Assembly: GCA_016840405.1 (NCBI GenBank)
Contig: JAEOSK010000013.1
Span: 1-64,000, forward strand
Source of the DNA: Candidatus Hermodarchaeum yapensis
Lineage (GTDB): Archaea > Asgardarchaeota > Hermodarchaeia > Hermodarchaeales > Hermodarchaeaceae
DNA length: 64,000 bases
Reading direction: 5' to 3'
This document shows, in pieces, positions 4,488-9,010 of the stretch (its first letter is position 1; the number at the start of each line of letters is the position of its first letter). The translations under genes were made by a program, and so were the position numbers. The notes below the pieces were generated by a model. That model was given only the letters and a program-made list of their open reading frames with translations, searched no databases and was not told the DNA's origin.

Positions 4488-4553
4488 AATATACAATTAA
4501 AGCGATTTTTGACGGTAAGTTATCCGCATAAAGAGTTTTTGACATAAAAGTTC

Positions 4554-4628
4554 ACCACGCTAACACGTGTTGTTCACGGTTATAAAGACCCTCTTCTAAC
4601 ACGTGGACTGAACGCAAATAATTAAATA
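4554..4628 (+). promoter_or_regulatory. Promoter with two CTAACACGTG boxes and TATA-like AATTAAATA
   Basis: CTAACACGTG at 4560-4569 and 4596-4605; AATTAAATA at 4620-4628. Confidence 0.6.
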
Positions 4629-4664
4629 GTATTTGTCATTGATTGTTGAACGGAGTGGTTTGGT

Positions 4665-6464
4665 TTGAAGTATACAAAGATATGTGTATTACTTTTTAGT
4701 GGAATTCTCTTGGTAAATTTTGGTGGGATGGTAGTATTTTCTTCAGATAGCTATTACAGCGGACCACCAACTACAGTTCTAGTATTTGGTGATGACCAAG
4801 ATATTCAGTACGCTAGAGAACAGATTATGGGGGAATTTATCCAGTTCATAAAGGATGACCCATTCATCAGACAGCGTCTCATACTGATTTGCAATCCCTC
4901 TCTGGACATTATTAGCTCTCTTGGGGGAATTGTGGTTTATGTATCACACGGGTCACCCGATGGACTAGTTACGCAAACAAATATCATACCATGGGCGCAG
5001 GTAGCTGCCAGGATAAATCAGTCACCCGCCAAAGTCCATATGTTTACAGCTTGCTATTCGAGCCAAGCTTCTAGGATGACATCTTCTCAAGAGGTTCTGG
5101 GTTTCGCAGGTCCCGTAGATGTGGATGTGGCCATGGCGTTAATAGTATCTCAGGAGCTTTCAATCCTCCAAGGACCAGAAGAGGGAATGCGATACTTTTG
5201 GTCGAAACTCATTGAAGGCGGCTTGATATGGAAGTACCTTTTCCCACAGAGAACACTTGACCCTGCTGATGAAATGATACAAGGTACTGGAGAATCGTCA
5301 AACCTTGCTGGTGAGATGCAAGGTCAGTCAGCAAATCCCCTTGGAATTACTGTATCGGGAGCTGTTGGCGCACAGAGCTATCTAGACATCAATGTCCACA
5401 ATTTGGGACAAACCGCAACCCTCCGGGTTGGTTGCGAGTTCATGTCGGTGGCACCATTTTTTAGGCTGTTTCTCAACGTGTTTTCTCAAGCACTGGGAGC
5501 TGAAATTTCAGTATTTCCGGTAGCCCTAACTGGAATAATAACAATTACTGAATCATTGGAAAACCTGATTTTAGACATGCTAATAGGAGGAATCGTGTCG
5601 CTAGCAATAATGCTAGCGGGAGTGAAGCTAGCAACGTACGTCGCAATGGCAACTATGTCTCTCCCATATGGAGTAATACCCCTTGCAGTGGCTCTGGGGA
5701 TTGAAATAGTTGAATGGGCATGGTGGACCTTTATAATGCCTAGTATTGGACATCTCGTAGCAATTGCCTTTGTGCAGCTACTAGCACTTATCTTAGGCGT
5801 TGGCAGTATACTTCATATCGGAGGATTAGCCCCTGGGGTAGCCACAGCAGCCCTTGAGACGGCAGCCCTCACCAGCTTCACCACTGTTCTACCGCTTCAT
5901 GTTCTCCACATGATTGGAAGTGCAATTATTCTCATGCTATCTTTCTGCTCTATCCACTATCTGATTTCATTAATCCCCCCACCACCGCCGCCACCACCAC
6001 CGCCGCCACCACCACCGCCGCCGCCAGGTGGCGGTTGCCCGATTCTCTCAGTCTACGATGGAAAACAGTACATCTCAGAGGGTTTATTGGACATTCACGC
6101 ATCTGAAGATGTCGTTAGACGGCATAGAATCTGCACTACGCCCGAACCCAATGGGCATAGATATCTGCTCCGGCTAACCGAACATCCGCAGACCATCTCC
6201 CACATCGACAACGTGCGATTGTTGGCCAGAGTGCAGGATGGAAGGATTCTGGAGTTACCTCTTGTTTCTGCGGTGCATACAGCACGCGGCAATGTTCTTC
6301 GGGAACTGCTCTCAAGCGACGATGTCCGCGTGGACACCTTGGGTGCTGACCATACTAACGGCAACAGCGAGTCCATCGACCTGCAATTTGTGGCACCACC
6401 AGGACTTGAAATCGTCGAGTGGTTCTTCTTCATCGAAGGATACAATGTGATTGTTAAATATTGA
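4665..6464 (+). CDS. Secreted multidomain protein: signal peptide, caspase/CHAT-like Cys peptidase domain, multi-helix hydrophobic region, Pro17 linker, C-terminal beta-rich domain
   Basis: N-terminal hydrophobic stretch; VVYVSHG (H95) and HMFTACYS (C130) dyad pattern; several hydrophobic helices at about aa 300-437; GGGCPILSVYDG domain. Confidence 0.65.
   Translation: MKYTKICVLLFSGILLVNFGGMVVFSSDSYYSGPPTTVLVFGDDQDIQYAREQIMGEFIQFIKDDPFIRQRLILICNPSLDIISSLGGIVVYVSHGSPDGLVTQTNIIPWAQVAARINQSPAKVHMFTACYSSQASRMTSSQEVLGFAGPVDVDVAMALIVSQELSILQGPEEGMRYFWSKLIEGGLIWKYLFPQRTLDPADEMIQGTGESSNLAGEMQGQSANPLGITVSGAVGAQSYLDINVHNLGQTATLRVGCEFMSVAPFFRLFLNVFSQALGAEISVFPVALTGIITITESLENLILDMLIGGIVSLAIMLAGVKLATYVAMATMSLPYGVIPLAVALGIEIVEWAWWTFIMPSIGHLVAIAFVQLLALILGVGSILHIGGLAPGVATAALETAALTSFTTVLPLHVLHMIGSAIILMLSFCSIHYLISLIPPPPPPPPPPPPPPPPPGGGCPILSVYDGKQYISEGLLDIHASEDVVRRHRICTTPEPNGHRYLLRLTEHPQTISHIDNVRLLARVQDGRILELPLVSAVHTARGNVLRELLSSDDVRVDTLGADHTNGNSESIDLQFVAPPGLEIVEWFFFIEGYNVIVKY
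5976..6026 (+). repeat. Poly-proline codon repeat (17 Pro; ~3 copies of a 15-bp CCACCACCACCGCCG unit)
   Basis: Read directly from the sequence. Confidence 0.95.
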
Positions 6465-6563
6465 TCTTAAATGCAGCAGACGAACACTCAGCGGTGGCGG
6501 CAAGGATTTATACTCAAGTGATGTAACGAAAGAAATGACGAATCAATTAGAGGAGAAAGCAAC

Positions 6564-7583
6564 GTGTCAGAACAGGCACAGGAATCTAGGCACCGTATTT
6601 GGCCAGAGAGTCTAGCTTACGGACTGGTAGTTTGGTTGCCGGTCGCTGTGATATCACTATGGCTTGGTCTCCCTACACGATTAATGAGTGGATTGGGGTC
6701 CACAGGGTTGCTGGCAGAGATTCTGGGATTCTACGTGATTTCCTATCCAGCCTTTATAATTCCAACTTTAGTTCGCGCGTGGAAGCGGGGCGCTATTATC
6801 GGTGATGGAGTAAAAATACTCGCTTGGATTCATTACGCTGTGGTCGTTTCCATACTGAGCGGGTTTGGTTTGTTTAATCTCCTTGTGGCGATGGGTGTTC
6901 CTCCAGCAGAGGCTTTCTCATTTGGACCTCCCCTCGCAGGGATATTGGCTATCGGCGTCATCATATTACTTTCAAAGTTGGAAAAACGGTTGGTGTCAAG
7001 GACTGGGCAGTCGTCTAACACATCTACATCCGATACTGCCTTGGCGATTCCAATTGACTTGTGGTCAAGTCGGGGTGGAGCCTGTGCGTTTTTTGTTGCT
7101 TTTTGTGGCACCGTGCTACTCTATTGTGCAGTATCCTACTTCGTATTATTAGGTTTCGGGCTTGACTTCCCGCCATCGACCTTTCTTGTAGCAACTATCC
7201 TTGCTTCTATTACGGGAGTCCTTGCCTTTTGCTATTCAGCAACGGGATGGATACAAAGCACATACCTCTCTGCCCTGCTCTGGGTGAGCGTTATTCCTGC
7301 CCTCCTAGTCGCAGGGTATCTCAGCGCCGTATGCCTAGTACCACTCTACTTTGGTTCATTATGGGGGAATCGTGTGGCAGACCGGGAACGAATACCCCGA
7401 TTGGCCGCATTCTTGCGAGAACGCCTAGAGCCTGGGAAAACCTTGGATTTGAAGCATCTCAGTTGGCTCAAAGAAAAGAGGGACTTCATACGTTATGCTT
7501 GGAAATTTAAGCTTTTAAAAGCAGCCGCAGAGATAATAGACTACCACATAAGTTCCAGTTCTACGTTGGAATCAATCACCTAG
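6564..7583 (+). CDS. Hypothetical polytopic membrane protein
   Basis: 339-aa ORF, about 7-8 hydrophobic helices, GAGGAG RBS upstream of the GTG. Confidence 0.7.
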   Translation: MSEQAQESRHRIWPESLAYGLVVWLPVAVISLWLGLPTRLMSGLGSTGLLAEILGFYVISYPAFIIPTLVRAWKRGAIIGDGVKILAWIHYAVVVSILSGFGLFNLLVAMGVPPAEAFSFGPPLAGILAIGVIILLSKLEKRLVSRTGQSSNTSTSDTALAIPIDLWSSRGGACAFFVAFCGTVLLYCAVSYFVLLGFGLDFPPSTFLVATILASITGVLAFCYSATGWIQSTYLSALLWVSVIPALLVAGYLSAVCLVPLYFGSLWGNRVADRERIPRLAAFLRERLEPGKTLDLKHLSWLKEKRDFIRYAWKFKLLKAAAEIIDYHISSSSTLESIT

Positions 7584-7783
7584 TTAAATACTACATATGC
7601 CCTCATCGCCACGAATTCAGGTAAGTACTCATTCGATAGTTATCTCAACAAATTCAGCTACTCTAAGGTATGACCAGTCAGGTTATCTGGGCTTCGTTCT
7701 CCTCATGAACCTAATTCTTTAGAAGGATCTCTATCTGCTCACATGAAAAGTTAAACTGATTTTCTAATCCTAAACCCACTCGT

Positions 7784-7912
7784 CTAACACGTAGTTTCAT
7801 GTTATCCACGTGTTAGGTATTTACCTAGAGTTAAGGGATCACTACCACGCGTTACTACCCTTTTACCACGTAACACGTGGAGCAGTAGTAAGCATAAGAA
7901 ACAAATTAAATA
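7784..7912 (+). promoter_or_regulatory. Second promoter with a cluster of TAACACGTG-type boxes and AATTAAATA
   Basis: CTAACACGTA 7784-7793, inverted CCACGTGTTAG 7806-7816, inverted variant CCACGCGTTAC 7845-7855, ACCACGTAACACGTGG 7865-7880, AATTAAATA 7904-7912. Confidence 0.6.
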
Positions 7913-7951
7913 TCAAATAGCACATTCATCTATTGACGAGGGTAGGGATTC

Positions 7952-8361
7952 TTGGACGGTGCAAAGGGCTGGGTGTTCATTGCTGTTGTTCTTGTGATTT
8001 TAGGGTATTTCCTGCCCATGCTCTATATCACAATTCCAACAATCACCATACATTGGATAGATTCCCTTCTCATCACTTTCTTAGAAACTCCAAGCATTGG
8101 AACTCCCAGCTTTGTTTGGTGGCTGTTCCCCATTCCCCTCATTCTCGCCATCATTGGCTGGGCCGGCTTCTCCTATCGACCCCGCCTTGCGTTTCTCAGA
8201 ATCGGCTTTTATCCTACGAGCATTCTCGTTATTCTCCTTCTGATATTTTCGGTATATCTAGCATCGATATCTTCATTCCCATTAACGCAATCGCTTTCAC
8301 TTTCGCAGCCCTGGCAGCACATCAAGCCAAAAAAAGACTCTCCCAAACCGAAAAGTCGTAA
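7952..8361 (+). pseudogene. Small membrane protein, apparently frameshifted at a T4 run (8246-8249)
   Basis: ORF 7952 is hydrophobic up to VILLLIF; adding one T continues into the 7933 frame FGISSIDIFIPINAIAFTFAALAAHQAKKR (TM helix plus basic tail). Confidence 0.55.
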
Positions 8362-8532
8362 CCTATGGAGGACCCATTGGATTACCTACAGAAAACTGTC
8401 TTACTTTCTCCTTCGTGTTCAATATATTTTATAATGAATAAAGAGTGCATTGGGAACATAAAGCAGGGAAAATCATCGTGAAACAGGGCAAATACTGGGT
8501 TGGCATGGAAGCAGCCGGCATTTAAGAGATGG

Positions 8533-8889
8533 TTAAATCAATGGAAAAATGAAACATAATAGACCGTCTGATGTGACACTAAGAAGCATGGAGCGCCGCC
8601 GTTGGCAGACAGCGTCAATCGTTTTAGGTAAATCGTCGTTATGTATCCAGCGAAGGAACGGTTTAATCCGCCACAACAGAGATTGGCGAGTAACCAGCGA
8701 CGGCTTTGTGTTTAGAAACTCATCCAAGTCCTCAACACTGATTTTATGCCACGGTTTGTTACAGAATTCCCCGAAGCTGTAAAGTGTGGATTTGTATTGA
8801 ACCCGTGTGCTTTTTGTAAACCGAGGATTTTTCAAGTACTTATCAACTAAATGGAAATCCGGCATAACACCATTAGCCATTGGCTCCAA
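8533..8889 (-). pseudogene. Truncated tyrosine recombinase/integrase (N-terminal SAM-like domain only)
   Basis: TKSTRVQYKSTLYSFGEF...ISVEDLDEFL...IKPFLRWI pattern; no catalytic R-H-R-Y domain follows. Confidence 0.6.
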
Positions 8890-9010
8890 ACGTTTAAAGT
8901 TTAAAACCGAATTTTCTTTTCTACAATTTTTCCAATGTAAGTTATCCTTTTAAGTAAAAACACCTCAACATTGGCAGAACCTTCTAAACTCTTAGATTAG
9001 GTGAAAACTA

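Follow-up and report, generated by a model that had tools for sequence, protein, structure and literature searches.

The 64,000 nucleotides analysed here, referred to as the window, are the first positions of contig JAEOSK010000013.1 (assembly GCA_016840405.1) of Candidatus Hermodarchaeum yapensis, an Asgard archaeon. They carry, between two short direct repeats, a gene cluster that begins with open reading frame (ORF) 4665-6464, coding a putative exported protease, and continues in the same orientation with gene 6564-7583, coding a polytopic membrane protein. A degenerate copy of a small membrane protein gene and the remnant of a tyrosine recombinase gene follow (Table 1). An initial annotation of this cluster had proposed a self-processing toxin/immunity module. 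The features that it listed for the protease gene product (a signal peptide, the SHG and ACYS motifs, FPQRTL, a spacer, a hydrophobic block, a tract of 17 prolines and a separate carboxyl terminus domain) are all found when the ORF is read.

The FPQRTL motif occupies residues 193–198 and is followed by a Gly/Ser-rich stretch modelled with low confidence (glycine plus serine 23% over residues 199–259). The motif P-[QE]-[RK]-P-L is kept in alignments of relatives of the protease. The hydrophobic segment at the amino terminus is present also in homolog P0002 and in nearly all relatives, and Pro- or Gly-rich linkers precede the same carboxyl terminus domain in relatives. Close homologs are few (P0002, with 75% identity, P0124, P0008 and P0012); P0119, likewise a close homolog, retains the same carboxyl terminus domain. 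Two scans of metagenomes and an initial one of genomes, aimed at the loci of close homologs, located none. Note that in a relative from G016:C10 (L009) the protease with its transmembrane (TM) part (1228-2406) and the part composed of polyproline and carboxyl terminus domain (2418-2957) are coded by adjacent ORFs in different frames. The break falls just 5' of the proline tract: either the gene is truly split or the CCN repeat has slipped.

The amino terminus domain features H95 in the motif VSHG and C130 in TACYS. Both are invariant, together with G96, G100, W110 and S132, in an alignment of 12 relatives that share 17–23% identity. The AlphaFold2 (AF2) model of residues 33–200, built with a 12-sequence alignment, has a predicted local distance difference test (pLDDT) of 75–90 and the order beta36-41, alpha45-62, beta72-76, alpha80-85, beta89-97, alpha110-119, beta124-128. 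In this model H95-G96 closes strand 89-97 (beta3) and A129-C130 comes after strand 124-128 (beta4), a placement that fits the rule that the catalytic dyad of clan CD peptidases lies at the carboxyl-terminal ends of beta3 and beta4 (PMC4357240). Structural matches are to clan CD enzymes with hardly an exception: clan CD and CHAT proteins fill the top 14 rows of the VIA comparison (Z 8.0–12.5). The best is SAVED-CHAT 8tl0 (Z 12.5 over 163 aa, root-mean-square deviation 3.2), and the others include legumain and OaAEP1 (Z 8.9–9.2), metacaspase (Z 8.8), and separase, C11, PIGK and caspases (Z 8.0–8.5). Gingipains are also among the structural matches, those to clan CD proteins other than SAVED-CHAT spanning Z ~7.5–9.2. 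The Foldseek search that had been suggested for this domain returned the expected caspase-hemoglobinase fold (E 2e-5 to 1e-3, probability 1.0), with 8tl0 at E 2e-5; MARTX CPD is seen in the Foldseek list only (E ~0.007). The model, the structural matches and the two invariant residues support a clan CD (caspase/hemoglobinase) fold with an intact His/Cys dyad, as the initial annotation had guessed. CHAT is structurally nearest to this domain, whereas membership of the Pfam CHAT family itself is not supported: the CHAT hidden Markov model (HMM; PF12770) has no match at E <= 1 in the protein or in the 12 relatives. Three members of the family show weak similarity to Peptidase_C25 (best E 0.026), and the family profile of the domain has no match among PDB sequences.

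Among the top structural matches is the CHAT domain of DdvA (8rot_B, Z 8.8 over 154 aa). This match, CHAT as the nearest fold and the conservation of a membrane partner gene (see below) would agree with an envelope sensor or switch, in which an external stimulus would make the extracytoplasmic CHAT-like domain cut itself or the membrane partner. The protein would then be analogous to DdvA, an anti-sigma factor that spans the membrane, bears a CHAT domain (PMC11506125) and controls a defence island through this domain. The window protein has, however, no recognisable cytoplasmic output domain; every part of it other than the TM helices is predicted to face outwards. Furthermore, the island codes for no sigma factor, no component of a cyclic-oligonucleotide-based antiphage signalling system (CBASS) and no CRISPR gene, and the four island proteins have no match in PADLOC. 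A sensor function is distinctly unlikely on this balance.

The profile of the amino terminus domain matches 124 of 400 Asgard genomes, which represent 44 of 85 genera, and a single genome has as many as nine matches. It defines a large, unnamed protease family that is widespread in Asgard archaea and has no Pfam or NCBIfam model. Most profile matches lie in open frames of 340–440 aa, and the typical protein is organized as a hydrophobic segment at the amino terminus, the domain and then at least two TM segments. A six-frame search of related genomes yielded relatives of ~310–390 aa with a signal peptide, the HG...C domain and TM helices at the carboxyl terminus. The same clan CD domain is found inside very large Asgard proteins of 1,300–1,950 aa (in G388, G387, G328, G317, G032 and others). 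A D-x-N-x-D-G-S-I-D loop lies right after the TM hairpin in two relatives (L010 1291-2340 and L006 973-1977(-)); its likeness to the calcium-binding loops of EF-hands or dockerins agrees with a tail outside the cell.

The most conserved part of the window protein is its carboxyl terminus domain (residues 455–599), which begins with a Gly run followed by Cys-Pro. A word-indexed search gave 118 matches, and 578 representative clusters were found besides; nearly all are due to this domain. Its identity is 50–75% across archaeal phyla and its position is nearly always at the extreme carboxyl terminus. The carriers are found in Thor-, Loki-/Prometh-, Hermod-, Bathy-, Kor- and Nitrososphaerota archaea, plus one metagenome-assembled genome (MAG) of Dehalococcoidia. 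The latter, labelled as such, codes for a 470-aa secreted protein ending in the domain with 52% identity (L035 3546-4958), a copy that reflects either horizontal transfer or a binning error. The modules that precede the domain are secreted and unrelated to each other: subtilisin, Big_7, PKD, Flg_new_2, CARDB, rhodanese, legumain C13 and CHAT. Carriers usually have a signal peptide and lack a TM segment before the domain. Because it follows secreted modules without an intervening TM segment, the domain would be extracytoplasmic. Its occurrence at the end of numerous other enzymes that archaea secrete makes binding or retention of proteins on the cell surface its most likely function. The GGGCP beta-sandwich might even be a novel signal for surface retention in archaea, though the probability of this is low.

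The AF2 model of the carboxyl terminus domain is an all-beta sandwich with pLDDT 95. A Hint/hedgehog-like self-cleaving domain, considered because the sequence starts G|C and contains a TxxH-like motif, was rejected in view of this sandwich and of the lack of any intein/Hint match. The domain has no clear relative in the PDB (best Foldseek E 0.011, VIA Z 5.9) and no model in Pfam or NCBIfam matches it. In the ESM Atlas the same fold is seen, with a TM-score of 0.85, in UnbV_ASPIC/FG-GAP proteins of bacteria and in CARDB proteins of Bathyarchaeota, which is a lead only.

The invariant Gly run and Cys that introduce a strictly terminal domain would also suit a transpeptidase or sorting enzyme comparable to legumain-type ligases, to the glycosylphosphatidylinositol (GPI) transamidase PIGK or to PorU of the T9SS (type IX secretion system). 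Surface proteins would then be cut at a signal in their carboxyl terminus, for example GGG/CP (the slash marking the cut) in front of the conserved terminal domain, and attached to an envelope component. Structural similarity to legumain, the OaAEP1 ligase and PIGK (Z 9.2, 8.9 and 8.5) agrees with such an activity, as does the partial resemblance of the carboxyl terminus fold to T9SS tail domains in the Atlas (TM-score 0.61 over 101 aa). Yet the distribution of the two components argues against it. The carboxyl terminus domain is patchy within Asgard archaea (36 of 400 genomes), and many near-complete genomes that code for it, for instance G182, G206, G224 and G249, have no member of the protease family. 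In family f20, 17 genomes carry the domain but only 10 of 135 the protease family. The genome to which the window belongs has just two proteins with this domain, both of them the proteases themselves, and clustering of the neighbours of 21 loci that encode it revealed no recurrent neighbour gene. A sorting enzyme of this kind is highly improbable. An obligatory role of the protease in processing the carboxyl terminus domain was rejected because their presence in genomes does not correlate.

The hydrophobic block between the spacer and the proline tract has 177 aa (residues 260–436), of which 20% are Gly or Ala and only two are Lys or Arg. Hydropathy delimits four strong TM-like segments and weaker ones, while helices 296-317, 337-384 and 409-435 are modelled by AF2 with low confidence. 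The corresponding position in relatives is usually occupied by a 2-TM hairpin and sometimes by more TM segments. A 2-TM hairpin is also found before the same carboxyl terminus domain in the CHAT-type proteins P0011, P0010, P0004, P0003 and P0120. The simplest reading of the block is an enlarged membrane anchor. With an even number of TM helices, the amino and carboxyl terminus domains would both lie outside the cell.

The gene downstream, 6564-7583, codes for a protein without family match in Pfam, NCBIfam or PADLOC, and for which the ESM Atlas gave nothing usable (best feature score 0.75, TM-score at most 0.32). A same-strand polytopic ORF adjoins the protease gene, often at a distance of 1–25 nt. 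This is the case at 6 of 9 family loci from genomes of the taxonomic order to which the window belongs (five from the genus and one from the sister genus) and, in a sample taken across the phylum, at ~11 of 19 family loci. The background is 5.7% of the genes of at least 250 aa in the window genome (G000), or 0.2% by strict criteria; note that related loci are not independent and that binomial figures overstate the significance. Adjacency of a polytopic membrane gene to the protease family is clearly far above chance, and this element of the initial annotation holds up. The protease and the adjacent membrane gene are likely to form a functional two-gene module, in which the partner may act as regulator, inhibitor, substrate, docking subunit or immunity protein. 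The partner is a mosaic. Its residues 9–145 match, with 53% identity, a stand-alone gene coding a 150-aa 4-TM protein in G011:C9 (L014 1471-1923(-)), located away from any protease gene, while its last 54 residues (285–338) match an 81-aa frame in G018:C29. A role as cognate immunity protein may fit the recurrent adjacency of a polytopic partner, while the existence of the amino-terminal half on its own away from proteases counts against it.

These data bear on the self-processing toxin of the initial annotation, in which a cut after FPQRTL would free a pore-former, with 6564-7583 as immunity protein and 7952-8361 as an orphan one. Several traits are those that such a system would have: the clan CD fold with its intact dyad, the adjacent polytopic membrane gene, partners that diverge fast like immunity proteins, a family expanded to up to 9 matches per genome, the location of this copy on a mobile island, and a hydrophobic block that is Gly/Ala-rich and nearly free of charge. 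Polymorphic toxins are, however, defined by variable carboxyl-terminal toxin domains (PMC3482391), and the window protein departs from this definition: its carboxyl terminus is the most conserved part and is common to subtilisins, PKD proteins and others. A constant carboxyl terminus domain on variable proteins is the opposite of a polymorphic toxin tip. The expectation of a constant amino terminus domain followed by a varying payload was not borne out either, the 118 and 578 matches mentioned above pointing to the last 145 aa. In most relatives a plain 2-TM anchor occupies the place of the supposed payload, and nothing specific favours the reading of this payload as a releasable pore-former, which is not supported. 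In addition, the only export feature is a Sec-type signal peptide, and searches of Pfam, NCBIfam and PADLOC found no secretion or delivery domain, no toxin family and no PADLOC match. The first half of the 339-aa partner stands alone away from protease relatives, and the proposed orphan carries a frameshift and belongs to a multi-copy gene family, the intact members of which lie away from protease genes (see below). The toxin/immunity reading of the cassette is not supported, and a self-processing toxin is considered unlikely.

ORF 4665-6464 probably codes for an exported, membrane-tethered and extracytoplasmic clan CD cysteine peptidase homologue of the large family described above, an assignment that leans on structural models and is held with some reserve. 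Its signal peptide would carry the amino terminus across the membrane, so as to place the caspase-fold domain with the H95/C130 dyad outside the cell. An even number of hydrophobic helices, four of them strong, would loop through the membrane as an anchor, and a rigid stalk of 17 prolines would present the conserved beta-sandwich on the outside, where it would most likely bind or retain proteins. The product of the co-oriented gene 6564-7583 would work together with the protease, for instance by regulating or inhibiting it, or by serving as its substrate or as a docking subunit. The likely job of the protease would be limited proteolysis of surface or extracellular proteins.

A number of observations weigh against this assignment. 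The protein 4665-6464 lacks a match to any model of Pfam or NCBIfam, that of CHAT among them, and the profiles compared by hhalign show only weak similarity to CHAT-bearing relatives (E 0.04). The membrane region is modelled unreliably, with pLDDT <50 for residues 205–359, and the presence of only two Lys/Arg in the block means that the positive-inside rule yields no orientation. The partner proteins are mostly dissimilar to one another, conservation being limited to the subfamily of L066, L067 and L069 and to one further pair, so that a single shared partner function is an assumption. The fast turnover of the partner, together with the expansion of paralogs, also fits a conflict system. In such a system the protease and a fast-diverging polytopic protein, present in many Asgard copies and mobile at this locus, would form an undescribed envelope conflict or self-protection module with a cognate inhibitor or immunity partner. 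This alternative is doubtful, and an extracytoplasmic, membrane-tethered peptidase homologue is preferred.

Table 1. Position of the features of the protease-partner locus in the window.
Feature	Position	Strand	Remarks
Left 11-bp direct repeat GTAAGTTATCC	4515..4525		Island boundary; att site or target duplication
Two TAACACGTG motifs	4561-4569, 4597-4605	+	Upstream of protease gene
Protease gene ORF	4665-6464	+	599 aa, TTG start
Signal peptide or signal anchor, aa 1-27	4665..4745	+	Hydropathy peak aa 5-26
Clan CD peptidase-like domain, aa 33-200	4761..5264	+	H95 codon 4947-4949, C130 codon 5052-5054
Low-complexity Gly/Ser-rich spacer, aa 201-259	5265..5441	+	Follows conserved P-Q-R/K-x-L motif; pLDDT <50
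Hydrophobic membrane region, aa 260-437	5442..5975	+	Hydropathy, composition, low-confidence AF2 helices
Pro17 linker, aa 438-454	5976..6026	+	Exactly 17 Pro
C-terminal beta-sandwich domain, aa 455-599	6027..6464	+	GGGCP start; includes stop codon
Partner gene	6564..7583	+	339 aa, ~7 TM segments and soluble C-terminal tail
Two TAACACGTG motifs	7807-7815 (-), 7871-7879 (+)		Upstream of small gene
Frameshifted copy of multi-copy small 4-TM gene	7946..8337	+	Frame change between 8266 and 8269
Tyrosine-recombinase remnant	8533..8889	-	118 aa, N-terminal SAM-like domain only; Pfam Phage_int_SAM_4 E 5e-5
Right 11-bp direct repeat GTAAGTTATCC	8937..8947		

The island in which the two genes are found is an insert of 4,422 bp. 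Its exact bounds are given by the 11-bp repeats, it is absent from relatives and it retains an integrase remnant, in agreement with the integrase-marked island of the initial annotation. Genomes G007, G003 and others join window position 4525 straight to 8937. Contigs with an empty site are found in public runs X5, X6 and X8, where the 4,422 bases are skipped and the 11 letters fit either side. The occurrence of empty and filled sites in public runs indicates that the insertion is polymorphic in marine-sediment and estuary populations. The relative of the integrase in G003:C24 is a 380-aa open frame, whereas no catalytic domain follows the remnant in the window. There is no tRNA gene at the insertion site, and Rfam gave a single sub-threshold match on the island, to SCARNA7 (26 bits versus a 65-bit cut-off), taken as chance. 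The protease-partner pair came in with an integrative element of 4.4 kb, which has since decayed.

The ORF 7952-8361, the orphan immunity gene of the initial annotation, is not an open frame; its coordinates take the beginning from frame 7952..8434 and the end from frame 7933..8361. The sequence is instead a copy of a small multi-copy gene in which residues 5–112 are read in one frame (7946-8266) and residues 116–138 in another (8269-8337). The copy has lost 7 bases, as found by alignment of six copies and by tblastn with the intact copy of G000:C36. The frameshifted sequence is identical in contigs of four independent public runs from at least three studies, showing that the frameshift is real and not an assembly slip. 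Window positions 7905-8359 have 80–89% DNA identity to copies in the window's own genome (G000 C36 and C76) and in G005, G007 and G011. The intact copies code for a 4-TM protein of 128–149 aa and do not adjoin protease genes, a location at odds with an orphan immunity role. Between paralogous copies and between species of the genus (L017 281-730(-) and L018 5388-5774(+) being among the copies), DNA identity of the small gene is 80–89%, well above the 65–74% of the flanking genes, which suggests recent spread or gene conversion.

The similar promoters noted earlier for the protease gene and the small gene correspond to pairs of the motif TAACACGTG, which precede both. This motif occurs 5 times in the window versus 0.37 expected; four occurrences are in the island, two before each gene, and the pair upstream of the protease gene is followed by an AT-rich TATA-like stretch (~4618-4634). 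A region of another contig of the same genome (G000:C39, 62.7–68.0 kb; L058 6725-12035) carries seven TAACACGTG motifs, a 120-aa integrase amino-terminal fragment, a two-gene pair coding 80 aa and 141 aa proteins, and several membrane protein genes. It probably represents another decayed integrative element, related to the island and sharing with it a putative regulator binding site.

The combination of modules found at the locus differs from each of the known systems that it resembles. The CHAT peptidases (PF12770; SAVED-CHAT 8tl0, Craspase TPR-CHAT/Csx29, DdvA) have the same His...Cys order on strands 3 and 4. The window domain is much smaller, with ~170 aa and no CHAT HMM match, and belongs to a protein predicted to be secreted and membrane-tethered, without SAVED, TPR or anti-sigma module and with a polytopic gene alongside. 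The fold and the HG and AC motifs are shared with legumain (C13), gingipain (C25), clostripain (C11), caspases and metacaspases (C14) and MARTX CPD (C80), and enzymes of C11, C13 and C25 are likewise secreted. Sequence similarity to these clan CD families is nevertheless below curated thresholds, and none of their pro-domains or Ig-like domains is present. The peptidase upstream of other modules, the membrane gene next to it and the mobile location recall polymorphic toxin systems (Zhang et al. 2012, PMC3482391), while the constant carboxyl-terminal module and the absence of a trafficking/repeat region, of a recognisable toxin domain and of a real orphan cassette set the locus apart.

A terminal sandwich of ~145 aa placed after a flexible linker on unrelated secreted enzymes is the arrangement found in the carboxyl-terminal domains of T9SS substrates (T9SS CTD/Por_Secre_tail) and in beta-sandwiches similar to carbohydrate-binding modules (CBM). 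The ESM Atlas likeness to Por_Secre_tail is partial. In contrast to T9SS tails, the window domain is archaeal, its conservation is far higher (50–75% across phyla) and its Gly run with Cys-Pro start is invariant. To our knowledge, no T9SS is known in archaea.

Caspase-fold proteases are central to eukaryotic cell death, to protein sorting (GPI transamidase, separase) and, as CHAT, to bacterial immunity, and Asgard archaea are the closest prokaryotic relatives of eukaryotes. The family described here, found in 124 of the 400 Asgard genomes, is predicted to tether this fold to the membrane on the outer side of the cell, and its genes usually lie beside that of a membrane partner. The domain at the carboxyl terminus of its member in the window is unannotated and highly conserved, and it forms the end of many enzymes secreted by archaea of sediments (Asgard, Bathyarchaeia and Korarchaeota), whose extracellular proteolysis is ecologically important. 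The protease family and the carboxyl terminus domain are concrete targets for structural and biochemical work.

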